Under the pieces are notes generated by a model. It saw nothing but the letters and a program-made list of their open reading frames with translations, had not been told where the DNA came from and ran no database searches. The position numbers and the translations under genes are program-made. From Eubacteriales bacterium (lineage in GTDB: Bacteria; Bacillota; Clostridia; Oscillospirales; RGIG5299): a DNA stretch of 64,000 bases. The stretch is taken from assembly GCA_045588575.1 (NCBI GenBank), contig JAZNEJ010000005.1:2269-66268 (forward strand), read 5' to 3'. Of this stretch, positions 747 to 19,832 are shown piece by piece; within the stretch, counting starts at the first letter, position 1, and every line of letters begins with the position of its first letter.

Positions 747-3572
747 TTATTTTTTTAAAAGCGGCTTTAAAAATTTTCCCGTGTAGCTTTGCTCGCACTC
801 GGCAACCTCTTCGGGAGTACCCATTGCAACGATTTGACCGCCGTTATCGCCGCCTTCGGGACCGAGGTCTATAATATAGTCGGCGGTTTTAATAACGTCG
901 AGGTTGTGCTCAATTGTCAAAACGGTGTTACCCTCTTCGGTAAAGCGGTTTAAAACCTCAATAAGCTTTTTAACGTCGGCGGTGTGAAGTCCCGTTGTAG
1001 GCTCGTCGAGAATGTAGATGGTTCTTCCCGTTGAGCGCTTTGTAAGCTCGGTTGCCAACTTAACCCTTTGAGCCTCGCCGCCCGAAAGAGTGGTTGAGGG
1101 CTGACCTATTTTAATGTAGCCTAAGCCGACGTCGTTTAAGGTTTTAAGCTTTTTTGCAATTTTCGGCACGTTTTTAAAGAATTCCAAGCCTTCAAAAACG
1201 GTCATTTCCAAAACGTCGCTTATATTTTTGCCGTTATATTTAACTTCGAGAGTTTCTCTGTTATATCTCTTGCCCTTGCAAACCTCGCAGGGAACGTAAA
1301 TATCGGGCAAAAAGTGCATTTCAATTTTCAAAATTCCGTCGCCCTCACAGGCCTCGCATCTGCCGCCCTTGACGTTAAAGGAAAAACGTCCGGGACCGAA
1401 GCCTCTTTCCTTGGCATCGGCGGTTAAAGAGAAGAGTTCGCGAATATCGGCAAAAACACCGGTGTAGGTTGCGGGGTTGGAGCGCGGTGTTCTTCCAATG
1501 GGAGATTGGTCTATAACTATCGCTTTATCTAAATTTTCAATGCCCAAAATTTCATCGTGAACGCCTGCCTTTTCCTTGCAGCCGTTTAACTCGGAAAGAA
1601 GCTTTTTCGAAACGATTCCGTTAATAAGACTCGATTTTCCCGAACCCGACACGCCCGTTACGCAAACCGACATTCCAAGCGGAATTTTAACGTTTATGTT
1701 TTTAAGATTATGCTCTCTTGCACCTTTAATTTCAAGAAAAGCGCCGTTACCCTTTCTTCTTTTTTCGGGAACGGGAACGGAAAGCCTTCCGGAGAGATAA
1801 TTTCCGGTAATGGAATCGGTATTTTTAAGAATTTCCTCGGGAGTGCCTGCGGCAACCACCTTTCCGCCCAAAACACCTGCGCCGGGGCCGATATCAACGA
1901 TGTAATCGGCATTTAACATCGTTTCCTCGTCGTGCTCAACCACAATAACGGTGTTTCCTATATCTCTTAATTTTTTAAGGGTTCCCAACAGCTTCATATT
2001 ATCGCGCTGATGAAGGCCGATTGAAGGCTCGTCGAGAATGTATAAAACGCCCATAAGAGATGAGCCTATTTGCGTTGCGAGCCTGATTCTCTGGCTTTCG
2101 CCGCCCGAAAGACTTTCGGATGCTCTCGAAAGAGTGAGATATTCCAAACCAACGTCTTTTAAGAATGAAAGCCTTGAAATAATTTCCTTCAAAATGGGAG
2201 TGGCAATCATTTTATCGCGCTCGTTTAAGATAAGAGCTTTTAAAAAGTCAAGCTCCTTGGAGATAGATAAATTACAAAGCTCGGCAATGTTAAGACCGCC
2301 TACGGTAACGCCGAGAGATATGGGGTTAAGCCTTTGTCCGTGGCAATCGGGGCAGGGAACCGAGTTCATAACACCCTCAATTTCGGCTTTTATATAGTCG
2401 CTTGACGACTCCTTATAACGTCTTTCAAGATTGGGAATAACACCCTCGAATGAGGATTCGTAATTTAACGAGCCGTAGGTATTTTGGCGCTTCATTTTAA
2501 GCTTTTCGCCGTTGTTTCCGTATAAAATTATCTTAACGATTTCGTCGGGAAGCTCGCAAACGGGGGTGTCGAGTGAGAAGGAATAACGCTTTGCCAAGGC
2601 AGAAAAATACATTTCGGCAATGGAATTATCGCAAACGTAGTTCCAGCTTGAAGCCTTAATTGCGCCCTCTCTTATTGAAAGATTTCGGTTGGGAATAACG
2701 AGCTCGGGGTCTATTTTCATTAAAACCGAAAGACCGGAGCAGGTTTTACAAGCGCCGAAGGGATTGTTAAACGAAAACATTCGGGGCTGAAGCTCTTCAA
2801 TTGCAATATCGTGCTCAGGGCAGGCGTAGGCAAGTGAAAAAAGCATCTCCTCGTTTTCGGTTATAACCATAACCAATCCCTTCGAGGCGTTGAGCGCGGT
2901 TTCAACCGAATCGGTAATTCTTTTTTGCGAATCAGCCTTAATTATAAGGCGGTCGACTATTATTTCAATGTTGTGCTTTTTGTTTTTATCAAGCGGAATA
3001 TCTTCAAAAAGGTCGTATAATATGCCGTCGACTCTAACTCTGGTAAAGCCCGATTTTTTAAAATCGGCAAGAAGCTTGTGATATTCGCCCTTTCTTGAAC
3101 GTATTACGGGCGCAAGAATTTGAATTTTAGTGCCCTCGGGAATTACACAAATGCGGTCAACTATATTATCTAAATTTTGCTTTACGATTTCTTTTCCGCA
3201 AACAGGACAATGGGGAAGACCTATTCTTGCATAGAGCAAGCGGAGATAATCGTAAATTTCGGTTATCGTTCCAACAGTTGAACGCGGATTCTTCGAGGTT
3301 GTTTTTTGGTCTATCGAGATAGCGGGAGAAAGGCCTTCAATCGAATCGAGCTCAGGCTTATCCATCTGACCGAGAAACTGCCTTGCATAGCTCGAAAGCG
3401 ATTCAACGTATCTTCGTTGACCTTCGGCGTAAATGGTATCAAAAGCAAGAGAAGATTTACCCGAGCCTGAAATGCCCGTTAAAACGACGAGCTTATCTCG
3501 GGGTATATCAATATCAATATTTTTTAAATTGTTTTCTCTTGCGCCTCTTATTTTAATAAATTCGTTTGCCAT
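747..3572 (-). CDS. uvrA: Excinuclease ABC subunit A
   Basis: 941 aa with two Walker A motifs ([18 protein letters not shown]) and two LSGGE ABC signatures. Cys-pair zinc modules are present. It starts 11 nt after uvrB. Confidence 0.97.
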
Positions 3573-3583
3573 AGCGTTTTTCC

Positions 3584-5575
3584 TTATTTTCGTTTTTTGG
3601 ATTTGGGAGTTTCGTTTTTCAAAAGCATTATCTTATCTCTTAAGAAGGCGGCGTGCTCGAATTCAAGCATTCTTGCGGCTTCCTTCATTTGTTTTTCAAG
3701 CTCCGAAATAAGAACAAGCTTTTCCTTTTCGTTTGAAATTTTAAGCGACGCTTCCTTTGAAACTTCCTCTTTGCTCGAAATTTCAATAACCTCTCTTATA
3801 TCTTTTACTATTGAATGAGGAACTATTCCGTGCTCCTCGTTATATTTCTTTTGAATTTCTCGGCGGCGGTTTGATTCTTTAATTGCAATTTCCATAGCGG
3901 GAGTAACGCTGTCGCCATACATAATAACCTCGCCGTTTGCATTTCTTGCCGCTCTGCCGATTGTTTGAATAAGAGAGGTATCGCTTCTTAAAAAGCCGGG
4001 CTTATCGGCGTCTAAAATAGCGACGAGCGAAACCTCGGGTAAGTCTAAACCTTCTCTTAAAAGGTTAATTCCCACCAAGCAGTCGAATTCACCCGAACGA
4101 AGCTCCTTGATAATTTTCATTCTTTCGATAGTATCGATATCGTGATGCAAATATTTCGCCTTAATACCCATTCCAACGAGATAATCGCTTAAATCCTCCG
4201 CCATTTTTTTAGTAAGCGTTGTAACCAAAACACGTTCGTTTTTCTCACTGCGCGTTTTAATTTCTCCGTATAGGTCTTCAACCTGACCGCTAATGGGACG
4301 CACCGAAATTTCGGGCTCCAAAAGTCCCGTGGGACGTAAAATTTGCTCAACTATATTATCTTCGCCCGAAACCTCTCTTTCATATTGAGAGGGAGTTGCC
4401 GAAACGAAAACGGTCTGATGCACCTTTTCGTTAAATTCGTTAAAATTAAGAGGACGGTTATCAAGCGCCGAGGGAAGCCTGAACCCGTAATTTACAAGCG
4501 TTTCTTTTCTTGCTCTGTCGCCCGCATACATTCCTCTGACTTGCGGAACGGTAACGTGGCTTTCGTCAATAAAGACGATAAAATCGTCGGGGAAATAGTC
4601 CAAAAGGGTGTAGGGAGCCGAGCCTCTCGGTCTGCCGCTTAAAATGCCCGAATAGTTTTCAATGCCTTTGCAAAAGCCTGTTTCGCGTAAAAGCTCCATA
4701 TCGTAATAACTGCGTTGCTTAATTCTCTGAGCCTCAACGAATTTACCTGCATTTTCAAAATATTTTATGCGCTCCTCGGTTTCTCTTTCAATTTCGGTTA
4801 AAGCTCTTGTTAATTTATCTCTGCCGATAACGTAATGCGATGCGGGGTAGATAGCAACGTGCGAAACAAAACCCGTAACCTCACCTGTAAGACATATAAT
4901 TTCGGTAATTCTTTCAACTTCGTCGCCGAAAAATTCAATTCTGATTGCCGTTTCGGCGGAATAAGAGGGAAAAACCTCAACGGTATCGCCTTTAACGCGG
5001 AATTTATTTCTTGAAAAATCAAAATCGTTTCTTTCATATTGCATTGAAATAAGACGTCTTATAAGCTCATCTCTTTCAAGCTGCATTCCAACTCTGACAG
5101 AAAGAGTCATCTCCTCATATTCGGCAGGGTCGCCCAAGCTGTAAATGCAGGAAACGGAGGAAACTATAATAACGTCGCGTCTTTCAAATAAAGCGCTGGT
5201 GGCGGAATGCCTTAATTTTTCAATTTCATCGTTTATCGAGGAATCTTTTTCTATATAAACGTCGGTTGCGGGAAGATAAGATTCGGGCTGGTAATAGTCG
5301 TAGTAGGAAACGAAATATTCAACTGCCGAATCGGGAAAAAATTCCCTAAATTCGCTGCAAAGCTGGGCGGCGAGAATTTTGTTGTGCGCCAAAACCAAGG
5401 TAGGCTTTTTAACCTTTGCAATAACGTTTGCCATAGTAAAGGTTTTACCCGTGCCGGTAGCTCCCAAAAGCGTTTGGAATCTTTTTCCTTCTTCAATTCC
5501 TTTTGCAAGCTTTTCAATGGCGGCAGGCTGGTCGCCGGTGGGATTAAAGCTTGAATGCAATTTAAAATTACTCAT
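3584..5575 (-). CDS. uvrB: Excinuclease ABC subunit B
   Basis: Helicase motif [12 protein letters not shown]-like DESH, and a C-terminal UVR motif ([12 protein letters not shown]). I moved the start to ATG 5575 (MSNFKL), which sits behind a GAGGA RBS. Confidence 0.96.
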
Positions 5576-5607
5576 TTTATCATTCCTCGGTAAATGGAGT
5601 ATATTAC

Positions 5608-5636
5608 AGTATAACATAAAACCGTAAATATGTAAA
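5608..5636 (-). promoter_or_regulatory. Putative sigma-A promoter of uvrBA
   Basis: Reverse strand reads TTTACA, 17 nt, TATACT, about 30 nt upstream of the uvrB start. Confidence 0.4.
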
Positions 5637-5700: not shown

Positions 5701-5729
5701 TTGAAATTGTTATTCAGTTATGATATTAT
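5701..5729 (+). promoter_or_regulatory. Putative sigma-A promoter of the zinc-ribbon/acyl-carrier operon
   Basis: TTGAAA (5701-5706), a 17-nt spacer, then TATTAT (5724-5729), about 32 nt upstream of ATG 5762. Confidence 0.45.
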
Positions 5730-5761
5730 TATATATTATATAGATATTAGGAGGTCATATT

Positions 5762-6235
5762 ATGAAAATTTGCACCAAATGTAACAAATCGCTTGAAGAC
5801 AATATGAACTTTTGTCCTATATGCGGAGCTTCGCTTGTTGAGGTAACGCCTCTTGCAAAGGCTGAAGAAGAAAAGCCGTTAGCGCAAGAAGAGCCCAAAA
5901 AGGTTGGCCGTGGATTAAAAATAACGGCTTTAATGTTTTCGATTTTCGGATTTTTCTATGGAACTATTGATATTTTAATTGTTCTTATGAATCTTTTTCT
6001 TGAGTATCCGGTAGTAAAAGAATCTGTTTATGAAATGGCATTTGCTTTTATGATTTTCTTTTTCCCTCTCGCTTTGGTAGGCTTTATTCTTTCTCTTAAA
6101 GCAAAAAGAGCGGAAAAAACTTCAAAGGCAGCCGGACTCGGTAAGGTTTTCGGCTTGTTAGGCATTATTTTTATGAGCGTTGCTTTTGTAATAGCGCTTG
6201 ATTTATTTAAAAACGGCGGACAAATAATACTTTAA
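5762..6235 (+). CDS. Zinc-ribbon membrane protein, paralog 1 (157 aa)
   Basis: N-terminal CxxC-x10-CxxC (CTKC...CPIC), an acidic linker, then about 3 hydrophobic helices. A strong AGGAGG RBS precedes it. Confidence 0.7.
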   Translation: MKICTKCNKSLEDNMNFCPICGASLVEVTPLAKAEEEKPLAQEEPKKVGRGLKITALMFSIFGFFYGTIDILIVLMNLFLEYPVVKESVYEMAFAFMIFFFPLALVGFILSLKAKRAEKTSKAAGLGKVFGLLGIIFMSVAFVIALDLFKNGGQIIL

Positions 6236-6257
6236 AGATTTTTTAGGAGGTCATATT

Positions 6258-6731
6258 ATGAAAATTTGCACCAAATGTAACAAATCGTTTGAAGACAGTA
6301 TGAACTTTTGCGCTGTATGCGGAAGCGAGCTTACAGAGTTTACTCCCGTTTCCGCCGCTGTTGAAGCAGCACCCTGCGAAAACGAAGTAAAAAAGGTTGG
6401 TTTAGGCGCTAAAATAGCGGCAATGGTATTGTCGATAACAGGCGTTGAACTTGCTACCTTCTCATTTATTTACACCTACGTCTACGGTCTTTTCTCGGCA
6501 GCAATGGGCGTCGGTTACGTGTCGTTAATTATTGCAATTCTCTTTTCAGTGTTGATGATACCTTCTATTATAGGTTTTGCTCTTTCGCTTAAAAACATAA
6601 AAAACGGCGATAGTTCCGTTTTCACTAAAATTGGTAAAATTTTCGGATTAATTGGAATTATTTTAATCGGTGTTTTGATTTTTATAGGAATATTATTTAC
6701 CATAATCGGAATGGCAGTAGGAACGGTATAA
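6258..6731 (+). CDS. Zinc-ribbon membrane protein, paralog 2 (157 aa)
   Basis: Same length and architecture as paralog 1 (CTKC...CAVC plus about 3 TM helices), with an identical RBS and first codons. Its stop overlaps the next gene's start (TAATG). Confidence 0.7.
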   Translation: MKICTKCNKSFEDSMNFCAVCGSELTEFTPVSAAVEAAPCENEVKKVGLGAKIAAMVLSITGVELATFSFIYTYVYGLFSAAMGVGYVSLIIAILFSVLMIPSIIGFALSLKNIKNGDSSVFTKIGKIFGLIGIILIGVLIFIGILFTIIGMAVGTV

Positions 6732-8644
6732 TGAACAAAAAATTGAGGAAAGTAATCCGTCATAACAGAGATGCTCTTGTAAATTCACAAAAAACGCTTT
6801 GTGATATTTATAAAATTATGTTCGGTTTTGAAGAAAATATTCTTTGCGAATACAGTGACGGATTCCGTGTAAAAACCGAGAGCTACGGCGAGGTTTTAAA
6901 AAAAATAAATATTGCCGCATCGGGATTATACGAAAAAGTGGGAAGCACTCATCAGTATATAGCCTTGGAAATTGATAACTCGGTTGAGTGGATAGTTGCA
7001 TTTTGGGCAATTTTAAAAAGCGGAAATAAGCCCTATTTGGTTAATATGCGTTACCCGAATTCACTCACGAATAAAATCCTCAAAACGCTCGAAATAAAAT
7101 ACGTTTTGGCATTAAAAGAAACCGAGCTTGAAGCACAAACAATTGTTTTTTCAACTCTTTCGGGCAAAACGGAAATTCCCGAGGGTGAATTTGAAGACGA
7201 AATTGCATTTTCAACCTCGGCAACCTCAATGAACGAGGTAATTTGCTTTTATACGGGATATCAGATTTCCGAGCAAATTTTGAATTTTGAAGGAATAATA
7301 AAAAAAGAACCCAGAATAGCAAAGCATTATAAAGGAAGCTTAAAGCAGCTTGCATTTCTTCCTTTTTATCACGTTTTCGGCTTATTTGCGGTTTATTTTT
7401 GGTTTACCTTTTTCGGCAGAACGCTGGTATTTTTAAGGGATTATTCTTCAGATACCATCTTAAAAACCTGTAAAAGACATTTTGTTACCCACATTTTTGC
7501 GGTGCCTGTGCTTTGGCATACCGTTTCGGCGGGAATTATTGCCGCTGCAAAGGAACAGGGCGAAAAGAAATATAATAAGCTTATTAAGGGCTTGAAATTT
7601 ACCAATGCAGTTCAAAATCTTTTCCCAAGCTTTGGCCCCGAAATTGCCAAAAGCGTTATGGGTGAGGTTACCAAAAAGGTTTTCGGCAAATCGGTTATGT
7701 TTTGCATTAACGGCGGAAGCTACGTTAAAAACGAAACGCTCGAGCTTTTAAACGGCATCGGCTACAACCTTTATAACGGCTACGGAATGAGCGAAATAGG
7801 AATAACGTCGGTTGAACTTGCAAGAAAGCCAAAGGAGCGAAATTCAAACTCAATAGGCGCGCCTTTTTCGTCGGTTAAATATAAAATCGGGGAAGACGGC
7901 GTTTTAAGCGTAAGCGGCAGCTCACTTTGCGTTAAAAAGATTATAAACGGTAAAACCGAGCTTTTAAACGGCGAATTTTACACCGGCGACAAAATGGAAG
8001 AAAGAAACGGAAAATATTACATACTCGGCCGTCTTGGCGACGTTGTAATCGGCGAAAACGGTGAAAATATAAACCCCGATTCGATTGAAAAGCAAATAAT
8101 ATTGCCCGAAGCGCTTGCTTTTTCAGTTTTGGGAATTCAAGGCGCAAACGGTCAGGAGCTTTCGGTTGTGGTGCAGGTAAGCGAGTTTATTTCCGAAGAA
8201 AAAATAGAAAAAATAAAGAGTGAAATTTATAAATATAACGATACCTTACCCAAAGCAACCGCTATAAGAAAATTCTATTTCACAACGAATAATCTTGCGG
8301 CTGAGGGCGCAATTAAGGTAAGCCGAGTTCAGCTTGTTAAAAAAATAGAAAACGGCGAGGTAAGCCTTACCGAATTTGCCGATATGAAGGTAACTTCTCA
8401 AACGGGCGAGGAGTCGCCTTTAACCGAGGCGGTTAAGGAAATAGTAGCTTCTGTCTTGTCAGTTAAGGCGGAAGATATAGCTTCAGACGCTCACCTCTTT
8501 TACGACCTCGGCGCAACCAGCATACAGTATTTTTCAATTCTCACACGTCTTGCGGAGAAATTTTCAATAAACGATTATCAAAAAACCGATAGTTATTGCT
8601 ACACCGTTAAAGAAATTTGCGAATATATAGGAAAACGAATTTAA
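6731..8644 (+). CDS. Acyl-adenylating (AMP-forming ligase) enzyme fused to a C-terminal carrier-protein domain
   Basis: ANL-superfamily motifs LPFYHVFG, GYGMSEIG, FYTGD and GRLGDVVIGENGENI. The C-terminal ~80 aa are a 4-helix carrier-like region with LGATS at the phosphopantetheine-site position. The P-loop region reads STSATSMNEV rather than TSGTTGxPKG. Confidence 0.85.
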   Translation: MNKKLRKVIRHNRDALVNSQKTLCDIYKIMFGFEENILCEYSDGFRVKTESYGEVLKKINIAASGLYEKVGSTHQYIALEIDNSVEWIVAFWAILKSGNKPYLVNMRYPNSLTNKILKTLEIKYVLALKETELEAQTIVFSTLSGKTEIPEGEFEDEIAFSTSATSMNEVICFYTGYQISEQILNFEGIIKKEPRIAKHYKGSLKQLAFLPFYHVFGLFAVYFWFTFFGRTLVFLRDYSSDTILKTCKRHFVTHIFAVPVLWHTVSAGIIAAAKEQGEKKYNKLIKGLKFTNAVQNLFPSFGPEIAKSVMGEVTKKVFGKSVMFCINGGSYVKNETLELLNGIGYNLYNGYGMSEIGITSVELARKPKERNSNSIGAPFSSVKYKIGEDGVLSVSGSSLCVKKIINGKTELLNGEFYTGDKMEERNGKYYILGRLGDVVIGENGENINPDSIEKQIILPEALAFSVLGIQGANGQELSVVVQVSEFISEEKIEKIKSEIYKYNDTLPKATAIRKFYFTTNNLAAEGAIKVSRVQLVKKIENGEVSLTEFADMKVTSQTGEESPLTEAVKEIVASVLSVKAEDIASDAHLFYDLGATSIQYFSILTRLAEKFSINDYQKTDSYCYTVKEICEYIGKRI

Positions 8645-8645
8645 T

Positions 8646-9926
8646 ATGAAGAAAAAATGGTTTATAAACTTGTTTCTCGCATTCACTAAAATAACGGGAA
8701 TAATTCCCGCCTACCTTTTTTTAAAGCCGCGAGTATTCTTGGAAAACGGGGCAAAACGCCGTCTTCCCAAAAATTGCATATTGGTTTCAAACCACAAATC
8801 GCTTTTGGACTTTGTTCTTTATTTAGTGGTTTTTCCCTTTAACACAATTCGCTTTTTAATGGCGGAGGTGCTTTATAATAAGGGCGCCTTTTTCGGATTT
8901 TTGCTTAACTCGTGGGGCGGAATTAAGGTGGAGCGCGATGCGCGAGATTTTTCTTTCGTTTCCGAATGTCTTGAAATTTTAGATAACGGCGGGAAAATAG
9001 GAATATTTCCCGAATCTCGCTTGCCGATAAACGGAAAACCGTTTCCTTTCACAACCAGCACCGCTTTTATTGCAATGCATTCAAACGCGCCGATAGTCCC
9101 CGTTTACACAAACGGCAGATACGGCATTTTTAAACGCACCTCCGTTTGCATAGGAAAACCGTTTTACCTTTCCGATTATATGAAAGAGGGCTTAAACGAA
9201 GAGGAGCAGATAAAGCATCTTACAGACGTTATAGAAAGTAAGGTTTACGAGCTTAAAAAACAAATGGAGGTTAAAATGGAACAACACCGCCTTTTTAACC
9301 TTAAAAGTATTCCTATGGATATGGCTCGCTTGGTTTCATCGGTTTTAATTCCCGTTTTAAGAATAAAACGTTTAACGCCCGAAGGCAAAAAATATAAAGA
9401 AAAAATAAAGGGCGGCGCGATTATTGCCGCAAATCACACCTCGTTTATCGACCCGTTTGTAGTGGGCATAACCTTTTGGTACAGAAGAATGTATTTCCTC
9501 GTTGCCGAAATAGTTATGAATAAAAAGCTTCGCGCAATGCTTTTAAAGGGCGTCGGAGCAATAAAAATAGACAGAAACGGAACCGATATAGAAGCCATTG
9601 AAAAATCGGTAGCCAAGCTAAAAAAAGGCTATCTTCTCACTGTTTTTCCGCAAGGCGGAATAAGCAGAAACGACGATATAGTTTCAATTAAAGCGGGCAC
9701 CGTGCTTTTGGCAATAAAGGCCGGCGTGCCAATTGTGCCAATGCATATTCTTCCAAGAAAACGCTGGTATAATACCAGAACGGTGATTATAGGGAAAACA
9801 ATAAATCCCAAAGACTATTTCCAAAGAAAATTTCCCAGCACGGCAGATATTAACAACGTTTCTGCCGCTTTAATTGATGAATTAAACCGTTTGAAATCGC
9901 TAAACGATGATATTATCGGAGGATAA
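8646..9926 (+). CDS. Tandem double PlsC/LPLAT-family acyltransferase (two acyltransferase domains in one 426-aa protein)
   Basis: Domain 1 has NHKSLLD, GGIKVER, FPESR and PIVPV. Domain 2 has NHTSFID, GAIKIDR, FPQGG and PIVPM. There is an N-terminal hydrophobic segment, and the start lies 1 nt after the upstream stop. Confidence 0.85.
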   Translation: MKKKWFINLFLAFTKITGIIPAYLFLKPRVFLENGAKRRLPKNCILVSNHKSLLDFVLYLVVFPFNTIRFLMAEVLYNKGAFFGFLLNSWGGIKVERDARDFSFVSECLEILDNGGKIGIFPESRLPINGKPFPFTTSTAFIAMHSNAPIVPVYTNGRYGIFKRTSVCIGKPFYLSDYMKEGLNEEEQIKHLTDVIESKVYELKKQMEVKMEQHRLFNLKSIPMDMARLVSSVLIPVLRIKRLTPEGKKYKEKIKGGAIIAANHTSFIDPFVVGITFWYRRMYFLVAEIVMNKKLRAMLLKGVGAIKIDRNGTDIEAIEKSVAKLKKGYLLTVFPQGGISRNDDIVSIKAGTVLLAIKAGVPIVPMHILPRKRWYNTRTVIIGKTINPKDYFQRKFPSTADINNVSAALIDELNRLKSLNDDIIGG

Positions 9927-9927
9927 A

Positions 9928-10170
9928 ATGGATACTTACAACAGATTATTAGAGGTTTGCTCCGCCGTTTTCGAGGGAGAAATAGACGTTAGCTTAATTA
10001 AGCCCGAGGCAAAGCTGATAGACGATATTAAAATTAATTCCATAGGACTTTTATATATGGCGTTAGCCGTTGAAGAAGAGTTCGGAATTAAATTCAGTAA
10101 CGATGATTTTCTTAAAATAATCACCGTTTCCGACGTTGTGGAAATTATAGAAAAGAAGCTTGCGTTATGA
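9928..10170 (+). CDS. Stand-alone acyl/peptidyl carrier protein (80 aa)
   Basis: ATG 9928 follows a GGAGGA RBS. It has ACP size and an acidic helix pattern, with a candidate Ser in DIKINSIGLLYMALAVEEEFG. Confidence 0.75.
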   Translation: MDTYNRLLEVCSAVFEGEIDVSLIKPEAKLIDDIKINSIGLLYMALAVEEEFGIKFSNDDFLKIITVSDVVEIIEKKLAL

Positions 10171-10577
10171 ACTGGGAAGCAAAAGAGCCAAAGCCTGCCG
10201 ATATAATAAGAACAAAGGTTAAGTTTTATTATCATTACGGCATTTTCGTAAGCGAAAACGAGGTTATTCAGTTCGGACTTCCAAACGACCCCGGCAGGCC
10301 TGCCGAAGAAATAAAGGTTATTGAAACCGACGTTTACACCTTTCTTTGCGGCGGAAATATTGAGGTTTTTTGTCCGAGCACAGATGAAAAGAAAAAGATG
10401 CGCACGCCAACAGAAATAATAAACACAGCCCGCGGCAGAATAGGCGAGGGGAATTACGATATTCTTCACAATAATTGCGAGCATTTTGCAAACAGCTGTG
10501 TTTTCGGCGAGTCGTCTTCAAGCTTCGTTGATTCCGTTAGAGAAAAAATAAGAAAAAAACTAAAGAGAAACGACTGA
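10167..10577 (+). CDS. PLAAT/LRAT (NlpC/P60-fold) Cys-His acyltransferase/phospholipase-like protein
   Basis: N-terminal EPKPADIIRTKVKFYYHYGIFVSENEVIQF and C-terminal YDILHNNCEHFANSCVFG. These match the His box and NCEHF catalytic Cys motif of the LRAT/HRASLS family. An ATGA overlap joins it to the carrier gene. Confidence 0.8.
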   Translation: MNWEAKEPKPADIIRTKVKFYYHYGIFVSENEVIQFGLPNDPGRPAEEIKVIETDVYTFLCGGNIEVFCPSTDEKKKMRTPTEIINTARGRIGEGNYDILHNNCEHFANSCVFGESSSSFVDSVREKIRKKLKRND

Positions 10578-10621
10578 ACGTTTAAATAACGGTAAAAATA
10601 TAAAGGTCGGAGGTGATGAAG

Positions 10622-11254
10622 ATGTGGATTTTACTCGGAATAATATTATTCATATTATTTCTTGTAACGGTTATTTTGCTTTTACCCGTTTCGGTTATAA
10701 TTAAAGCTAATGAAAAGGGCGAATTTAAAATACTCTATAAGCTGCTCTTCAAAACCTTTGGAGAAAAGCCCGACCCGAATAATCCCATAGTTAAAACTTT
10801 AAAAGAGGTTGTGGGAGTTACAAGGCTCGATAAAGAAAAATTAAAGCAAAGCGTAAAAGAAAAAGGCTTTCTTAAAACTCTTAATGAAAGCGCTGCTCTC
10901 ATTTTGGAGCTTATTAAAAAAGCCTTTAATTTATTAAAAAAATGTAAGCTTAAAGATTTAAAAATAGATGTAATCTGCGCCGAGGAGGATGCCGCAAAAA
11001 CGGCAATCGCTTACGGGAGGGCTTATGCAATTATATCGCCCGTTTTGAATTTTATTAACGGTGTTATGAAGGTGCGTAAAAAGGGGCAGAAAATAAATAT
11101 AACTCCCGATTTTAACGGAGGCGAGCCTTCTTTTAGCCTTGAAATTGTTTTAACGGTTTCGGTTTTCAGAGTTTTAATTGTATTTTTACAGCTTATGGCT
11201 GATGAGAAAAAACGAAAAGAGCAGGAAACGGTTAAGAAAGAAAATCAAAAGTAA
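10622..11254 (+). CDS. Single-pass membrane protein, possibly DUF2953-like
   Basis: GGAGG RBS 8 nt before ATG 10622. It has an N-terminal TM helix (ILLGIILFILFLVTVILLL), a Lys-rich body and a late hydrophobic segment. The family call is from memory only. Confidence 0.55.
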   Translation: MWILLGIILFILFLVTVILLLPVSVIIKANEKGEFKILYKLLFKTFGEKPDPNNPIVKTLKEVVGVTRLDKEKLKQSVKEKGFLKTLNESAALILELIKKAFNLLKKCKLKDLKIDVICAEEDAAKTAIAYGRAYAIISPVLNFINGVMKVRKKGQKINITPDFNGGEPSFSLEIVLTVSVFRVLIVFLQLMADEKKRKEQETVKKENQK

Positions 11255-12206
11255 GATTTAAAACCTTGCTTAAAATAGCCTCGTCGCTTGCCAAAATGGC
11301 GTGAGTGGCGTTTTCAACGCTTTCAAAACGGCAGTTTTTGCATTTTTCAAAAAACTTTTTCTGCGGAGCGTTGTTAACCATTTTGTCTTCCGTTGCCGAT
11401 ATTATAAGAATAGGCGTTTGAATTTTTTTAACAACGCTTGAGCTTAAAATTTTTCTTCCAACGTTAAGCGAATTGCTAACCCAACCGAAGCTCATGGGAG
11501 TTGATTGGTAGTTGGGGTTTTCAATTCGAAGCTTCATATTATGTTCAAAGCGCGCTTGGCTTTGTCCCATTGCGGGATTAAATTTAACGTTTGGATTAAA
11601 TTCATCGCTCAAGAAAAATTTACGTTTTTTACCGAAAATAAATTTTCCAATATTAAGCGAAGCACGCGCAACCTTAAAGGGAACCTGCTTTGAAATCGGT
11701 TCAAACATGGGAGCCGATAAAACGGCTTTTTCAATTTTGTTTTGGTTTTGCGCCAAATATAAAGCGGTTACCGCGCCGCCCATTGAGTGAGAAAAAATGT
11801 AAAGCGGCTTATCTTCGGTTTTCAAAACTATTTCATCTATAAAATAGCTTAAATCCTTAACGTAATCGTTAAAACTGTTAACGTGGAGCAAATTTATTTC
11901 AGGTGTCAGCCTTTCGGAAAGCCCGTGGCAACGCTGGTCATATATGAAAACGTTAAAGCCCTTATTTAAAAAGTAATAAATAAGCTCGTAGAACTTTTTT
12001 GTAAACTCGCTTAATCCGTGCACTATAACCAAGTTAGCCTTGCTTTCCTCGGCTAAAAAATATTCATAAAAGATGTTAACGTTATCGAATGCGGTAAAAT
12101 TTCCCTCGCATTTAACGGAGTTAAGCATTTTTGTAATTTCGTTTATTTTGTTTGAAAAATCTTTTTCGGAAATTATTTCCGTCTTACAATTTGGAACAAA
12201 CCTCAT
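11232..12206 (-). CDS. Alpha/beta hydrolase, lysophospholipase/monoacylglycerol-lipase-like
   Basis: VIVHGLSEF oxyanion region, nucleophile elbow SHSMGG, and a late H (ENATHAIL). The start is set at ATG 12206 behind an AAGGAGA RBS. Its 3' end overlaps the convergent upstream gene by 23 nt. Confidence 0.8.
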   Translation of the reverse strand: MRFVPNCKTEIISEKDFSNKINEITKMLNSVKCEGNFTAFDNVNIFYEYFLAEESKANLVIVHGLSEFTKKFYELIYYFLNKGFNVFIYDQRCHGLSERLTPEINLLHVNSFNDYVKDLSYFIDEIVLKTEDKPLYIFSHSMGGAVTALYLAQNQNKIEKAVLSAPMFEPISKQVPFKVARASLNIGKFIFGKKRKFFLSDEFNPNVKFNPAMGQSQARFEHNMKLRIENPNYQSTPMSFGWVSNSLNVGRKILSSSVVKKIQTPILIISATEDKMVNNAPQKKFFEKCKNCRFESVENATHAILASDEAILSKVLNLTFDFLS

Positions 12207-12253
12207 ATTAGTTAATCTCCTTTGATTTTTAAAAGCAAAAAGTGGTGATAATA

Positions 12254-13195
12254 ATGATATCGAATAAAAAACAAAAAAAGGTTTTGATATCAATTATTGT
12301 TCTTATACTGTTTATAGCTTCTTCGTTTTTAATAACAAAAATTATTTACGACAGTATTTTCATCCGTTGCGACTGCCAAACCGCTCACTTTGAAAAACCG
12401 CTTGAAAATATTATTAACTCAAGAAAAAATTTTAAATACAAATGCAATGAAAACCTTTTGGCAGGTTTTTTATATGAAAGCTCAAGCGAGCTGAAAAACG
12501 ATACGCTCATTGTTTTGGCTCCAGGATTTAATGCATGCTCCGAAAGCTATTTATGGCAAATTAAAGAGCTTTGCGATTACGGCTGGTCGGTTTTTGCATT
12601 TGATGCAACCGGAACGGGCAGCTCCGAAGGAAGCACAAGCATTGGTTTCCCGCAAGAAGTAATAGATTTGGAAAAAACGCTTGATTTCATTGAAGAAAAT
12701 AACAGATTTAACTATAAAAACGTCGCTTTAATGGGGCATAGCAGGGGCGGTTACGCCGTTTGTTGTGCATTGGCGGAAAAACGCGATATAGCGGCGGTAA
12801 TCTCAATAAGCGGCGTAAACAGCGCAATGGAAGGTGTTATAGGCGCAAGCAAGAAATACGTTGGCAATTTTGCCTATGCAAATTACGGTCTGCTTTGGCT
12901 TTATCAAACTATGCTTTTCGGCGAAGATGTTGTAAACCTGAGAGCAGACGAGGTTTTAAAAACCACTCAAACTCCCGTGCTTGTAATACACGGTAAGGAC
13001 GACGGCAAAATCCCGATAAACGAATTTTCAATAATGTCTTATAAAGATAAGATTGCAAACGGTAACGTTGAATATTTGGTTTGCGGCGATGCGGGAAGCT
13101 CAGGACATAACGACCTGCTTTTTGACAGCGACGGCACCGCAGACGATATTTTAATAGGAAAAATAAACGATTTTTTAAATATGAGTATCAAATAA
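12254..13195 (+). CDS. Membrane-anchored alpha/beta hydrolase
   Basis: N-terminal TM helix, elbow GHSRGG, and late VIHGKDD...GHNDL. The start is ambiguous (GTG 12242 or ATG 12254). Confidence 0.75.
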   Translation: MISNKKQKKVLISIIVLILFIASSFLITKIIYDSIFIRCDCQTAHFEKPLENIINSRKNFKYKCNENLLAGFLYESSSELKNDTLIVLAPGFNACSESYLWQIKELCDYGWSVFAFDATGTGSSEGSTSIGFPQEVIDLEKTLDFIEENNRFNYKNVALMGHSRGGYAVCCALAEKRDIAAVISISGVNSAMEGVIGASKKYVGNFAYANYGLLWLYQTMLFGEDVVNLRADEVLKTTQTPVLVIHGKDDGKIPINEFSIMSYKDKIANGNVEYLVCGDAGSSGHNDLLFDSDGTADDILIGKINDFLNMSIK

Positions 13196-13212
13196 AAGGA
13201 TTGAAAAATAAA

Positions 13213-14244
13213 ATGGACGTAGTTTTAATACCTGCCTACGAGCCCGACGGCGAGCTTATTAAAATAGTTAACGAGCTAAGCGAAAACAGTTTTAAAACCG
13301 TTGTTGTTAACGACGGCAGCAGCGAGAAATACAATGAAATTTTTAACGCAGTTAGCGAGAAAGCCGAAGTTGTTACATTAGAGAAAAACTCCGGCAAGGG
13401 TGCTGCCTTAAAGGCAGGTATGAAACACATAAAAGCGAACTATCCGAACTGCAAAAACTTCATAACCTGCGATGCCGACGGTCAGCACCGAGTTTCCGAC
13501 GTTATTAAGGTTAGAGAAGAACTTCATAAAGGGAAAAACTTCGTTTTAACAATAAGAGAAAGAAAGGGTAAAATTCCGTTTCGTTCCCGCTTTGGAAACG
13601 ACCTTTCCAAATTCGTTTTCACCATATTAACAAACAACTATTTATCCGATAATCAGTCGGGCCTTCGCGGCTTTTCAATAAAGAATATAGATTGGCTTAT
13701 GGAGGTTGAAAAAGATAAATACGATTATGAAATGAACGTTTTATATTATGCCGCCAAAAAAGGCCTTGAAATAACCACCGTTCCGATTGAGGCAATCTAC
13801 ATTGAAAACAATGCTTCTTCGCATTTTTCACCGGTTAAAGATACCGTTAGAATTTATAAAAGCCTTTTCGGTTTGGCAATGGGAACACTTCTTACCTTTG
13901 CTTTCACCGAGCTGTTGGTTATTATAACATCGCTTACCTTCGGCACAGAGCAAATATTTTTAACGCTTTCGGTAATAGGCGCGTTAAGCTTATTATTACA
14001 TATTATATTAAACCGTTTCGTTTTTTTAAGAAAAGCAAAAGTAGGGGACGACCTTTCAACCGTTGTTTACACAATTATTTATTATTTCGTCTACACCATT
14101 TTAACGGCGTTGTTTTCCTTTATGTTTACGGGCGTTTCGCTTTTCATAATTTTCAACTTGGCTTATATAATTTGTTTACCGCTGAAATTTTTCTTGCATC
14201 AGCTTATCTTTATTGCAAGAACTAACCGAAACAAAATATTATAA
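13213..14244 (+). CDS. GT2 glycosyltransferase fused to a GtrA-like 4-TM domain (polyprenyl-phosphate sugar transferase type)
   Basis: IPAYEP...VVNDGS...DADGQH (DxD-type GT-A motifs), followed by about 120 aa with four hydrophobic helices. Confidence 0.8.
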   Translation: MDVVLIPAYEPDGELIKIVNELSENSFKTVVVNDGSSEKYNEIFNAVSEKAEVVTLEKNSGKGAALKAGMKHIKANYPNCKNFITCDADGQHRVSDVIKVREELHKGKNFVLTIRERKGKIPFRSRFGNDLSKFVFTILTNNYLSDNQSGLRGFSIKNIDWLMEVEKDKYDYEMNVLYYAAKKGLEITTVPIEAIYIENNASSHFSPVKDTVRIYKSLFGLAMGTLLTFAFTELLVIITSLTFGTEQIFLTLSVIGALSLLLHIILNRFVFLRKAKVGDDLSTVVYTIIYYFVYTILTALFSFMFTGVSLFIIFNLAYIICLPLKFFLHQLIFIARTNRNKIL

Positions 14245-14251
14245 AAGATAT

Positions 14252-14283
14252 AAAGACAAACAAAGCGTTTGTCTTTATTTTTA
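14252..14283. terminator. Bidirectional terminator between the GT2 gene and plsX
   Basis: Perfect 10-bp stem AAAGACAAAC/GTTTGTCTTT with an AAAGC loop, followed by a T-run. Confidence 0.6.
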
Positions 14284-15258
14284 TTTTACAAATATGTTCG
14301 ACATTTCTTTCGAAAAATCGGCCTTGTTAAGCCTTAAAATTTGAGCTATTGAGGATATAACCGTTTCTTCGTTAGCCATACCGTGCATTTTAACAACGGT
14401 TTTTTGAGTGCCCAAAAAGGTTGCGGCGCCTCTTGAATTAAAATCGAATTTTTCGGTTATTTTCGCCTTCATTTTTTCAACCAATTCGGGAGCCTCGTCC
14501 TTAAAGGATTCAATAATTTCAAGAGCTTTTTTGCCTGAGGCTTCGGTGTTTTTCAAAAGCAAATTTCCCGAAAAACCGTCGGCTACAATTACGTCGGCAT
14601 AGCCCGAAACCATATCGCTGCCTTCAAGATTACCTATAAAATTAAGGTTGGTTTCTTTTAATTTAGCAAAGGCTTCCAACGTTAATTTGTTTCCCTTGGC
14701 GTCCTCTCTGCCAACCGACATAAGCCCAACTCTCGGGCTTTCAATACCGCAATAACACTTTGAGAAAACGTTGCCCATTTTTGCGAAATTAACCAAATCG
14801 GTTGAGCTGCAATCCACCAATGCGCCGCAATCAACCAAGGTTAAAAGAGATTCGTTTGCGCAAGGCAAAGCGCTGCAAAGCGACGGGAATTTAATTGAGG
14901 GAAGCAAGCCCAAACGGCAAACCGAGCCGACTAAAAGCGCACCGGTGCTTCCTGCCGAAAGAAAGGCAACTGCGTTTTCGTCTTCCTTTAAACGTTTGTA
15001 GCCGAGAGCAACAGAGATTTCATCACGTCCGCGGAAAATAGAGGAGGCAGGCTCATTATTGGTTATATAATCGGTTGTGTGAATAATTTCATATTTGTCT
15101 TCAAAAACACCGTTAGCAGACATAATTTCCGAAACCGTTTGGCTGTTTCCGACTAAAACGGGGAAGATGCCGTAAAGCTTAACAGCTTTGGCAACACCCG
15201 CAATAATAACCTTTTCGCCGAGGTCGGCGCCATAGGTATCAACAACAATTTTTTCCAT
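14281..15258 (-). CDS. plsX: Phosphate acyltransferase PlsX
   Basis: 325 aa. GNLEGSD...ADVIVADGFSGNLLLKNTE and HGMAN match the PlsX family pattern. Confidence 0.92.
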   Translation of the reverse strand: MEKIVVDTYGADLGEKVIIAGVAKAVKLYGIFPVLVGNSQTVSEIMSANGVFEDKYEIIHTTDYITNNEPASSIFRGRDEISVALGYKRLKEDENAVAFLSAGSTGALLVGSVCRLGLLPSIKFPSLCSALPCANESLLTLVDCGALVDCSSTDLVNFAKMGNVFSKCYCGIESPRVGLMSVGREDAKGNKLTLEAFAKLKETNLNFIGNLEGSDMVSGYADVIVADGFSGNLLLKNTEASGKKALEIIESFKDEAPELVEKMKAKITEKFDFNSRGAATFLGTQKTVVKMHGMANEETVISSIAQILRLNKADFSKEMSNIFVK

Positions 15259-15266
15259 AGCGCACC

Positions 15267-16901
15267 TTATTCCAAAGAAATAATGTAATCGTAAATTTCC
15301 TGCTTGCCGTCGATAAAACCAATATCGGCAAGAGGATATTCGTTTTCAATATAGCTTTTAAGAATGTTAACCTCATCGGAAGAAACGTTTTTGCCGTGGA
15401 AAACTATAATAATTGATTTTTCGTCCTCGCTCATAATGCGGTTGATTAACGAAACGGTAAGCTCAAAGCGGTTAAAACCGTTTAAAACTATATCTTTGTT
15501 TTTAATGCCGAGATACTGATTTTTCAAAATTTCAAGCTCGCCTATTTTAGCATCTCTCGTGGCGGTGGTAACGGCGGCGGAAACAACGGAGTTTAAGCCG
15601 GAAGACATATCTTCAATAAGAGTTTCCACGTCTTCGCTCCACAAATTCATCATAGAAAGGGCGCTGTAACCCTCAACTATCGTTTTGGTGGGAATAACGT
15701 GCACGTGAGCAGATTTATAAATGCCCGCAACCTGATTTGCAGTGAGAATAATGTTTGAATTGTTGGGAAGTAAAATAATGTGCTCGGCATCAAACTTTTT
15801 AAAGGCGTTTAAAAAATCCTCAACCGAAGGGTTGTTGGTTTGACCGCCGTTTATAACGGAAGTAGCGCCTATGCTGTAAAAATAATCTATAATACCCTCG
15901 CCCGAAGCAACGGTTACAATGGCGTATTTAACCTTTTCGCGCTTATCTTCGAGCTGTGTTTCGTTGTGCTGAACCGACATATTTTCAATTTTTAAATTCA
16001 CAAACTCGCCAAACGCTCTTGCGTGAGCCAAAACCTTTTCGGGAGTAAAGGTGTGAATGTGAAGCTTAACTATATCGCCGCTTACAACGCAAACGATTGA
16101 ATCTCCCATGGGGTAAAGCGGCTCTAAAAAGCTTTCCTTTGAAAAAGAGGGAATATCAACCTTTGCATTCATTAACTGCAAAATAAATTCGGTGCAATAT
16201 CCGTATTCCATAACGCTGTCGGGCCCGAAATTCAAAGCCGTTTTAGCCGAATTGGGCGCATAAGACTCAACAGTTTCAACGTCGTCGATTGAAATGCCGC
16301 AAAAATAAGAATAAATTCCTTCAAAAAAGCAAACAAGACCTGCGGCCCCGCTATCTACAACTCCGGCTTCCTTTAAAACGGGAAGCATATCGGGAGTTTT
16401 TGCAAGCGTTTTTTTCATACATTCGAGTAATGCCTCAATGCCCGATTTAAAATCCGAATAGTGTGAAGCATTAGAGTCCAAAAAATCATAAGCTTCTCTT
16501 ATAACGGTTAAAATCGTTCCTTCGGTAGGAACGATAATTGAGTTATATGCATCTTCCTTTGCAAATTTAAAGGCGTTTGCCAAATCGGCAAAGCAAATTT
16601 CGGTTTTGTCGTTAAGACCTCTTGCAAAGCCCGTTACAAACTGAGAAAATATAACGCCCGAGTTACCTCTTGCGCAAAGCAAAACCGATTTTGCAAGAGA
16701 ATTGGTATATTCGTTAACCTTTTCGCTTTTTGTAACAGCGGCCATACCGCCGCCGAAGGTGTGGAGCATATTAGTTCCGGTATCTCCGTCCGGCACGGGA
16801 AAAACGTTTAAGTCGTTAATAACCGAAACGTTCTTTTTTAAATTGCCGCAACCAACGGTAAATAAAGCGTGAAGCTCATTACCGTTAATAAACTGTTGCA
16901 T
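15267..16901 (-). CDS. fakA: DAK2-domain protein YloV / fatty acid kinase FakA
   Basis: 544 aa. The N-terminal Dak2 motif is FPVPDGDTGTNM, and there is a C-terminal DegV-like/uncharacterised domain. It starts 2 nt after the upstream DegV gene. Confidence 0.9.
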   Translation of the reverse strand: MQQFINGNELHALFTVGCGNLKKNVSVINDLNVFPVPDGDTGTNMLHTFGGGMAAVTKSEKVNEYTNSLAKSVLLCARGNSGVIFSQFVTGFARGLNDKTEICFADLANAFKFAKEDAYNSIIVPTEGTILTVIREAYDFLDSNASHYSDFKSGIEALLECMKKTLAKTPDMLPVLKEAGVVDSGAAGLVCFFEGIYSYFCGISIDDVETVESYAPNSAKTALNFGPDSVMEYGYCTEFILQLMNAKVDIPSFSKESFLEPLYPMGDSIVCVVSGDIVKLHIHTFTPEKVLAHARAFGEFVNLKIENMSVQHNETQLEDKREKVKYAIVTVASGEGIIDYFYSIGATSVINGGQTNNPSVEDFLNAFKKFDAEHIILLPNNSNIILTANQVAGIYKSAHVHVIPTKTIVEGYSALSMMNLWSEDVETLIEDMSSGLNSVVSAAVTTATRDAKIGELEILKNQYLGIKNKDIVLNGFNRFELTVSLINRIMSEDEKSIIIVFHGKNVSSDEVNILKSYIENEYPLADIGFIDGKQEIYDYIISLE

Positions 16902-16903
16902 CG

Positions 16904-17791: not shown

Positions 17792-17802
17792 ATTAAATCT
17801 CC

Positions 17803-18747: not shown

Positions 18748-18879
18748 ATTTCTCCTCCAAAAGATAAATATATATAACTATATCACAAAAATCGCCCTTT
18801 TTCAACATTTTTTTACTTTTTTATAGAAATTTCCAAAGTTATATGCTATAATAAATTAAATGCGTTTTTGGAGGAAAAT

Positions 18880-19827: not shown

Positions 19828-19832
19828 TATTG

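Follow-up and report, generated by a model that had tools for sequence, protein, structure and literature searches.

A candidate carrier-protein-dependent lipid acylation cluster with an LRAT-family enzyme in uncultured gut Clostridia

Introduction

What does a bacterium do with an adenylating enzyme, two acyl carriers, two lysophospholipid acyltransferase (LPLAT) domains and an enzyme of the LRAT/PLAAT family when the genes for all of them stand in one row? The question is raised by an operon at positions 5701-11254 of a 64,000-nucleotide stretch of a Eubacteriales genome (contig JAZNEJ010000005.1), which we call the window. A preliminary description of its seven genes read them as an expanded and split relative of Escherichia coli Aas, in which a free fatty acid passes through acyl-AMP to a carrier, two acylations follow, and the LRAT enzyme removes or transfers acyl chains of phospholipids. 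The central components are A-CP, which unites an ANL adenylate-forming domain and a carrier domain in one protein, a protein with two LPLAT domains, a free acyl carrier protein (ACP) and the LRAT/PLAAT-family protein (LRAT).

To our knowledge, Gram-positive bacteria are thought to take exogenous fatty acids through FakAB and to have no Aas-type acyl-carrier synthetase systems, and we know of only one characterized bacterial LRAT-like enzyme, LnsA. The LplT-Aas system has been identified only in Gram-negative bacteria, and the genes for lysolipid uptake and acylation in Gram-positive bacteria have not been assigned (PMC11416262). In Staphylococcus aureus, LnsA and LnsB serve lipoprotein N-acylation; LnsA is secreted, has a cleaved signal peptide and takes the sn-1 chain of phosphatidylglycerol (PMC13559823, PMC7387801).

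In this study, we followed the operon through other genomes and metagenomes and examined its proteins with profile, structure and literature searches. We propose, with a probability of roughly 0.55, that it belongs to a widespread, Aas-like, carrier-protein-dependent cluster of gut Clostridia (Acutalibacteraceae, Oscillospiraceae) that acylates lipids with scavenged, exogenous fatty acids.

Results and Discussion

Conserved gene order and a fuller form of the cluster

The conserved core consists of A-CP, two LPLAT domains, ACP and LRAT. More than 100 loci keep this order, the most distant of them at about 30% identity, and dozens share the core quartet at 30-75%. The series A-CP, the two LPLAT domains (LPLAT2), ACP and LRAT recurs in nearly every complete locus, at identities as low as 32-37%. 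This order is far beyond chance. Conserved synteny in other genomes had been set beforehand as a check, and it proved strong.

A scan of GTDB species genomes yielded 46 loci with a double LPLAT, all from uncultured gut or rumen Clostridia (Acutalibacteraceae, Oscillospiraceae, Faecousia and one Lachnospiraceae). The hosts of the cluster are uncultured gut anaerobes known from metagenome-assembled genomes (MAGs) only, among them GCA_054288585.1, from which locus L001 derives. A 1.6-kb contig binned as Elusimicrobiaceae (L024) carries LPLAT2, ACP and LRAT about 66% identical to those of the window; this is more probably a Clostridia contig placed in the wrong bin than a true occurrence in Elusimicrobia.

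With a fusion of LRAT to an Sfp-type 4'-phosphopantetheinyl transferase (PPTase) as bait, we retrieved eighty metagenome loci. They share one layout: A-CP, sometimes a transporter of the MFS_2 family, LPLAT-N, LPLAT-C, a second adenylase (A2), ACP, and LRAT with or without the PPTase. Counted only where flanking sequence permits, A2 lies upstream in 35 of 36 loci, directly before ACP, as do LPLAT-C (28/28) and A-CP (23/23) at their own places further upstream. A2 is FadD-like by NCBIfam models and, for that reason, is predicted to be of the fatty-acid type.

Two loci (L139 and L111) contain a co-directional, tightly packed cluster of 13 genes in the order hydrolase, A-CP, LPLAT-N, LPLAT-C, A2, ACP, LRAT-PPTase, hydrolase, DegV/FakB, MFS_2, FakA, hydrolase and a zinc-ribbon DUF4190 protein. 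Compared with this form, only A2 and the MFS protein are missing from the window, where the LPLATs are fused and the PPTase is detached (Table 1). Judged by gene content, the window copy is a reduced form of the 13-gene cluster. The functional unit is not the seven genes for which it was first taken: the gene for the DUF2953 protein is a neighbour, and the conserved system continues past 11254, adding FakA, FakB/DegV, PlsX, alpha/beta-hydrolases and the PPTase, together with A2 and the MFS_2 transporter in the fuller form. The PPTase gene lies inside or beside the cluster in L001, L048, L142, L149, L152 and L154. The Sfp-type PPTase of the window is the probable activator of both carriers; it is the detached counterpart of the PPTase that is fused to LRAT elsewhere.

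The MFS_2 gene stands between A-CP and the LPLATs in six loci (L048-L050, L086, L087 and L145). We considered whether its product is a known lysolipid transporter and rejected this assignment, since sequence matches in PDB are to MelB only or absent and NCBIfam models of GPH/sugar symporters score below their cut-offs. One locus (L048, 4731-10531) is a minimal variant with A-CP, MFS_2, two LPLAT genes and the PPTase, and without free ACP or LRAT. Its layout is the closest to LplT-Aas and may represent the core of the system.

The LRAT-family enzyme and its link to the carrier

The LRAT protein scores 77 bits against PF04970, for which the gathering cut-off is 24.3. Human PLAAT3 (4fa0) matches it at E=2.5e-7, with the catalytic residues aligned to His23 and to Cys104 of the NCEHF motif. 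Both the His of HYGIF and the Cys of NCEHF, singled out in the preliminary description, are nearly invariant among relatives, and the third position of the triad is Gln35, with His or Glu in some of them. A signal peptide is absent from the N-terminus (MNWEAKEPKPADIIR), and the 136-residue protein, which ends in a basic tail, KIRKKLKRND, contains neither a transmembrane (TM) helix nor a hydrophobic segment.

Two features of the genomic context connect this enzyme with carrier proteins. Orthologues in L049 and L050 carry an Sfp-type PPTase at the C-terminus, and the same fusion is present in 49 of 71 metagenome loci. Where flanking sequence permits a count, ACP directly precedes LRAT in 63 of 64 loci. 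An exhaustive search with a profile built from the LRAT alignment returned 3,617 cluster representatives at E <= 1e-3. The best 150 are mostly about 330-350 residues long with LRAT at the N-terminus, and Pfam recognizes ACPS in at least 69 of these. A literature search found no description of an LRAT-PPTase fusion. Because LRAT is fused to the PPTase and strictly adjacent to ACP, it is predicted to act on a carrier thioester; the arrangement suggests a tie to carrier-protein chemistry in which acyl-ACP is either substrate or product. The same features point away from the free-standing phospholipid de-acylation step that had been assigned to LRAT and toward acyl-ACP instead. It is the first bacterial LRAT/PLAAT-type enzyme seen to be genetically linked to an acyl carrier protein.

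One protein retrieved with the profile (P0366, 1125 residues) has ten stretches that match it, apparently tandem LRAT domains, and probably accounts for the lowest E-value obtained with Pfam LRAT, 9.9e-276.

The double acyltransferase

Two complete PlsC/LPLAT motif sets had been reported in one protein, and both are borne out by conservation. The HX4D motifs (H50/D55 and H264/D269) are invariant across the double-LPLAT family, whose members are 28-72% identical, and so are both FPE/FPxG blocks (FPEG). In most relatives the halves are separate genes (L044, L047-L050 and most of L086-L164).

Each half matches best the AGP_acyltrn/AGPAT models and the Aas-type PRK08633 model of acyl-ACP:phospholipid acyltransferase, below the family cut-offs. 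Against TIGR00530 (PlsC, cut-off 102.95 bits), the whole protein reaches 113.7 bits as a two-domain sum, with 49 and 68 bits for the halves taken singly. Against the Aas equivalogs it obtains 56 bits (PRK08043, cut-off 886) and 105 bits (PRK08633, cut-off 1221). The nearest folds to its AlphaFold2 (AF2) model, which has a mean predicted local distance difference test (pLDDT) score of 81, are PlsC (5kym), the glycerol-3-phosphate acyltransferase (GPAT) 1k30 and PatA; LpxM is among the fold relatives as a distant one only.

The adenylating enzyme and a correlated change in gene content

Both carriers retain the phosphopantetheine Ser, which in the A-CP carrier domain lies within GATSIQY. ACP-family NCBIfam models score the free ACP below their cut-offs. 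In the A domain of A-CP, motifs A5, A7 and A8 and the A10 Lys are conserved. The A3 P-loop of the window protein, FSTSATSMNEV (within A-CP residues 158-174), is non-canonical; the form FS(S/T)SATSMNEV is invariant in the clade of the window, and the canonical Gly and Lys are missing from it. The step from free fatty acid to acyl-AMP, part of the preliminary description, is thus uncertain for the window copy, whose invariant P-loop lacks the Gly and Lys kept in fuller clusters.

Database neighbours of A-CP do not discriminate among functions. Its AF2 model (pLDDT 72, with low confidence near the active site) has MenE, the McyG A-PCP and AasS as nearest folds, and the PDB sequence search and Foldseek search of the model together gave MenE, chlorobenzoate ligase, the McyG A-PCP, AasS and FadD13. 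Neither PRK08043 nor PRK08633 is among the best 25 NCBIfam models for A-CP.

The form of the P-loop is correlated with the composition of the cluster. It is near-canonical (SSGTSxxVK) in clusters of the A2 type and has the degenerate SSATSMNEV form in all clusters without A2. We counted linked genes in loci of at least 12 kb, comprising 21 clusters with A2 and 34 without. FakA is linked in 15/21 and 28/34, respectively, and DegV in 16/21 and 26/34; from the FakA counts, the link to fatty-acid kinase holds for both types. PlsX is linked in none of the 21 clusters with A2 and in 28 of the 34 without, and the MFS gene shows the opposite distribution (18/21 and 1/34). A lysophospholipase-L2-like hydrolase is linked in nearly all loci that lack A2. 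In one locus (L002), fakA, plsX, A-CP, LPLAT2, ACP and LRAT are contiguous and co-directional. From these distributions, the presence of PlsX appears to go together with the absence of A2 and with the altered P-loop.

Proposed function

In the pathway that we propose, the Sfp-type PPTase would turn both carriers, the free ACP and the one within A-CP, into their holo forms. The linked membrane hydrolases would release fatty acids, FakB/FakA would handle them, and each carrier would receive them in thioester linkage. The loading enzyme would be the A domain of A-CP or, in the reduced version, PlsX using acyl-phosphate made by FakAB. Both PlsC/Aas-type LPLAT domains would then O-acylate a phosphate-bearing glycerolipid acceptor from the acyl-carrier; the simplest acceptors would be two lyso-phospholipid isomers, or glycerol-3-phosphate followed by lysophosphatidic acid. 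LRAT may draw an acyl chain from free ACP onto Cys104 and hand it to a third acceptor (a lipid amine or hydroxyl), or to water as an editing step. A second arm, leading from A2 through ACP to LRAT where A2 is present, would supply a further acyl chain or edit the carrier. The zinc-ribbon DUF4190 proteins, which are membrane proteins, probably serve as docking sites for the soluble enzymes. Gene content, catalytic motifs, gene order, fusions and correlations are direct observations, and from there on the substrates, the direction of the LRAT reaction, loading by PlsX and the part played by the zinc-ribbon proteins are inferred.

Several observations argue for this proposal: the domain families and intact catalytic motifs, the models and folds that the LPLATs match best, the conserved gene order, the LRAT-PPTase fusion, the FadD-like character of A2, the Fak linkage and the joint pattern of PlsX and P-loop. 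Two analogies are also consistent with it. LnsA demonstrates that lipid acyltransferase activity is possible for an LRAT-like enzyme of bacteria (PMC13559823), and the position of MFS_2 between A-CP and the LPLATs is reminiscent of LplT-Aas.

Other results weigh against it. No NCBIfam equivalog score comes near its cut-off, and by this measure no protein here is an orthologue of Aas, PlsC or OlsA. With the canonical Gly and Lys missing from its P-loop, the A domain of the window may have lost adenylation. The best profile and fold matches of A-CP are MenE, aryl-CoA ligases and the A-PCP module of nonribosomal peptide synthetases as much as fatty-acid enzymes, so that, as judged from sequence and model, neither singles out a substrate. 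The MFS_2 proteins resemble MelB/GPH sugar symporters in sequence and not known lysolipid transporters. LRAT is absent in L044, L047 and L048 and is thus dispensable for the LPLAT arm. Finally, PlsX, FakA and DegV are housekeeping genes, and part of their linkage could be inherited synteny.

We also put forward, tentatively, a more specific version. LRAT would be the first PLAAT/LRAT member to use a carrier thioester, as an acyl-ACP:lipid or ACP:phospholipid transacylase, in a lipid-making or repair route undescribed in Gram-positive bacteria. The degenerate A domain would no longer use ATP, and the A domain or PlsX would load the carriers from FakAB acyl-phosphate, a non-orthologous replacement of the lost A2.

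If the proposal is correct, the cluster is a concrete candidate for Aas-like use of fatty acids or acylation of lysolipids in abundant, uncultured gut and rumen Clostridia. Acyl-ACP chemistry would be new for the LRAT/PLAAT family and would provide a testable hypothesis for bacterial LRAT/PLAAT proteins, of which the LRAT profile by itself retrieves thousands of homologues. Clusters with and without A2, which differ in P-loop and PlsX linkage, constitute a natural experiment. Should the product be an acylated lipid of a distinctive kind, lipid signalling between host and microbe could also be affected. The possible novelties are thus an ACP-coupled LRAT enzyme and a version of the system fed by acyl-phosphate.

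Comparison with known systems

The closest known system is Aas/LplT, represented by E. coli Aas and by fused MFS-LPLAT-ANL proteins (PRK08633, PRK08043). Like Aas, the cluster combines an ANL acyl-carrier synthetase, a PF01553 acyltransferase with HX4D and, as we propose, an acyl-ACP intermediate; its LPLAT halves score among their best against Aas-type models; and variant loci place an MFS transporter between synthetase and acyltransferases. The differences are substantial. The ANL domain of the window does not follow the LPLAT C-terminally in one polypeptide but belongs to another protein, where its fusion partner is a carrier domain. The single LPLAT domain of Aas has two counterparts, and the cluster adds a second carrier, LRAT and a dedicated PPTase. 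Unlike LplT, which is of the MFS_1 type, the transporter of the cluster is of the MFS_2/GPH type with MelB as best match, and no MFS gene is present in the window operon. Scores of 40-105 bits stand against cut-offs of 886-1349, and the hosts are Gram-positive Clostridia. The cluster is therefore predicted to resemble Aas in its mode of working, but by architecture, scores and transporter type it is not Aas.

LnsA and the LRAT of the window both belong to the permuted NlpC/P60 Cys-His acyltransferase family in Firmicutes, and LnsA acts on lipids. Unlike LnsA, LRAT has no signal peptide, is translationally coupled to ACP and has orthologues fused to a PPTase. LnsA works with a non-catalytic membrane partner, which offers a possible analogy for the zinc-ribbon DUF4190 proteins. 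That partner, LnsB, is of the CPBP family, whereas the membrane proteins of the cluster are of the zinc-ribbon DUF4190 type; Pfam results for the operon and flanking genes contained no member of the CPBP/CAAX-protease family. With mammalian PLAAT/HRASLS and LRAT enzymes the window protein shares PF04970 and the catalytic His and NCEHF Cys aligned to PLAAT3. It differs from them by the absence of a C-terminal TM anchor, by Gln as the third triad residue and by genomic partners, ACP and PPTase, that imply a thioester rather than a phospholipid substrate.

The FakA/FakB-PlsX-PlsY-PlsC pathway is represented by FakA, two FakB/DegV proteins and PlsX at 14281-18747, beside the operon and not within it; in the full cluster, FakA and FakB lie among the other genes. 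The known Fak pathway employs the housekeeping AcpP and a single-domain PlsC and, unlike the cluster, has no adenylating enzyme, dedicated carriers or LRAT.

Three other pathways were considered and rejected. For Dlt D-alanylation, Pfam found no MBOAT protein (DltB) or DltD in the operon and the flanking genes scanned, and DltA is only a weak structural relative. For synthesis of ornithine or other amino-acid lipids, no OlsB-like domain was found, and scores were 28.9 bits for OlsA (cut-off 300) and 22.6 for OlsF (620). For the lipid A acyloxyacyl route, the partner enzymes that define it are missing and no score approaches its cut-off. The preliminary description could name no characterized pathway with this gene set, in agreement with these profile searches and with a literature search, which found no description of it. 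The overall reading given there is partly supported, by the protein families, the affinity of the LPLATs to AGPAT/Aas models and the conserved synteny, and we have revised its operon boundaries and mechanism.

Alternative explanations

A remodelling route resembling the Lands cycle was evaluated first. Here LRAT, as a phospholipase A1/2 or transacylase, would strip acyl chains of phospholipids onto its Cys and perhaps onward to holo-ACP, an ATP-independent form of loading, and the LPLATs would re-acylate the lysolipid with a chain activated by A-CP. PLAAT/LRAT enzymes and bacterial LnsA do remove acyl chains from the sn-1/sn-2 positions of phospholipids (PMC13559823). Lysophospholipase-like hydrolases are linked, and in window-type clusters the free ACP has no dedicated adenylase, a gap that loading by LRAT would fill. 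In the fuller and commoner cluster, however, the FadD-like adenylase directly precedes ACP in 35 of 36 loci; loading of ACP would there be ATP-dependent, and LRAT is therefore left as the unloading enzyme. The PPTase fusion also binds LRAT to the carrier rather than to the membrane, and LRAT has no TM helix or signal peptide. We consider this route unlikely.

Instead of remodelling lipids, the cluster might form a self-contained route from exogenous fatty acids to phosphatidic acid, with one LPLAT half acting as GPAT, the other as 1-acylglycerol-3-phosphate acyltransferase (AGPAT), and dedicated carriers. In organisms reliant on scavenging, such a route would run beside PlsX/PlsY/PlsC with AcpP or take its place. 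The two distinct LPLAT genes or domains are always paired and their folds resemble both PlsC and GPAT, FakA, FakB and PlsX are tightly linked, and the hosts are uncultured gut anaerobes known as MAGs only. Against these points, the canonical pathway appears to be present, given single-domain PlsC-like genes near the cluster in L002 and L044 as well as PlsX, and the route has no role for the ACP-LRAT arm or the MFS transporter. This makes it rather improbable.

Equally doubtful is the synthesis of a specialized multi-acylated lipid or lipid-like metabolite, such as a glycerolipid N- or O-acylated at the head group (N-acyl-phosphatidylethanolamine or acyl-phosphatidylglycerol type), an acylated glycoside or an N-acyl amine. 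Each arm would bring an acyl group of its own kind, and export or flipping of the product would fall to the MFS protein. With its two adenylases, two carriers, dedicated PPTase and three active sites for acyl transfer, the cluster does have the look of a small assembly line; N-acyltransferases are known among relatives of LRAT (PLAATs, LnsA), relatives of MFS_2/GPH carry glycosides, and a family 2 glycosyltransferase (GT2) gene often neighbours window-type loci. Yet the cluster contains no condensation, ketosynthase, reductase or tailoring genes, GT2 is not found in full clusters, the linkage to Fak and hydrolase genes indicates bulk fatty-acid salvage, and the cluster sits among housekeeping genes, syntenic across a family.

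That the genes are chance neighbours with unrelated functions and an accidental order is effectively refuted by conserved synteny (the order extends over more than 100 loci to roughly 30% identity, and start codons overlap with stop codons), by the LPLAT-N/LPLAT-C, LRAT/PPTase and A/CP fusions and by correlated gene loss and gain, even though the promoter-like site is not statistically exceptional and DUF2953 and GT2 do look like unrelated neighbours.

Locus organization and neighbouring genes

All seven open reading frames (ORFs) described for the operon were located, on the plus strand and co-directional, and Pfam and NCBIfam agree with the families given for their products (Table 1). The junctions are likewise as reported: a TAATG overlap at 6729-6733 joins the stop codon of the second zinc-ribbon/TM (ZnR-TM) gene to the start of A-CP, an ATGA overlap at 10167-10170 joins ACP to LRAT, and a 44-nt gap separates LRAT from the ATG of DUF2953 at 10622. 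The ACP start codon (ATG 9928) is preceded by its own ribosome-binding site, GGAGGA.

Table 1. Features of the operon and its surroundings in the window (E-values follow the domain names)
Feature	Position	Strand	Evidence and remarks
Promoter-like site TTGAAA-17-TATTAT with TG extension	5701-5729	+	consensus match only
ZnR-TM protein 1	5762-6235	+	N-terminal zinc ribbon and three TM helices, DUF4190/MpPF26-like; Pfam Zn_Ribbon_1 1e-7
ZnR-TM protein 2	6258-6731	+	paralogue of protein 1, 42% identical; Pfam
A-CP, 637 aa	6731-8644	+	ANL adenylate-forming domain and carrier domain; Pfam AMP-binding 5.5e-30, PP-binding 2e-7
Double LPLAT, 426 aa	8646-9926	+	PF01553 matched twice; PlsC/Aas-type acyltransferase domains
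Free ACP, 80 aa	9928-10170	+	PP-binding 8.6e-7; phosphopantetheine Ser in INSIG
LRAT/PLAAT-family Cys-His acyltransferase, 136 aa, cytoplasmic	10167-10577	+	PF04970 1.9e-21
DUF2953 single-pass membrane protein	10622-11254	+	PF11167 1.8e-9; best start ATG 10622
Lysophospholipase-L2-like alpha/beta-hydrolase, conserved neighbour	11232-12293	-	Hydrolase_4 4e-45; NCBIfam PRK10749 1.4e-46, below cut-off
Membrane-anchored alpha/beta-hydrolase, conserved neighbour	12242-13195	+	homologue upstream of A-CP in full clusters
GT2, polyprenyl-phosphate glycosyltransferase-like	13201-14244		syntenic in window-type loci
PlsX (acyl-ACP:phosphate transacylase)	14281-15258	-	FA_synthesis domain in syntenic L001
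FakA, fatty acid kinase subunit A	15267-16901	-	Pfam Dak2, FakA-like_M, FakA-like_C
Two DegV/FakB fatty-acid-binding proteins	16904-17791, 17803-18747	-	Pfam DegV 1.6e-50, 1.2e-50
Membrane-anchored alpha/beta-hydrolase	18868-19827	+	orthologue of a hydrolase inside full cluster, L139:14000-14950 (45% identical, E=1e-104)
Polysaccharide deacetylase	19830-20702		interspersed with lipid genes
Sfp-type 4'-phosphopantetheinyl transferase	20718-21302	-	AASDHPPT_N 2.7e-17, ACPS 3.3e-11

The ZnR-TM proteins are, as far as profile matches indicate, a recurrent accessory of the cluster. Such matches adjoin it in most loci, including the distant L041, L050 and L139, with one to three copies per cluster, upstream or downstream; one copy is recognizable as Zn_Ribbon plus DUF4190. 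Small membrane proteins of the DUF4190 type without a zinc ribbon occupy the same places in L044 (11568-12839) and L003 (14956-15342). The TM domain therefore appears to be the conserved part of the accessory protein.

DUF2953 is confined to the close clade. In L034 its gene travels with the block of lysophospholipase, hydrolase, GT2 and PlsX genes, away from the operon, and in L001 a zinc-ribbon gene and a reverse-strand PPTase gene intervene between LRAT and DUF2953. We rejected it as a component of the system because distant loci lack it and it moves with the neighbouring block in L034; it is possibly co-transcribed with the operon. The GT2 gene was rejected as a component because it is not found in full clusters. 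GT2 and the polysaccharide deacetylase are probably cell-envelope genes unrelated to the system. Between DUF2953 and the lysophospholipase-like gene, which converge with a 23-nt overlap at 11232-11254, we found no terminator-like hairpin.

The promoter noted in the preliminary description does exist as a site, and it has a TG extension; as a statistical signal it is weaker, with 29 promoter-like sites found in this AT-rich region and 20.4 expected from shuffles, a modest enrichment. We regard the promoter as plausible and statistically unremarkable. It sits in a 144-nt divergent gap between uvrB and the first ZnR-TM gene.

A 182-residue antisense ORF (9936-10484, minus strand) runs across the genes for ACP and LRAT; its sequence has an odd appearance on inspection, and it is almost certainly spurious. 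Upstream of the operon, uvrA and uvrB are divergent from it (747-5617, minus strand), and the same intergenic region contains a promoter-like site for uvrB at 5636-5608.

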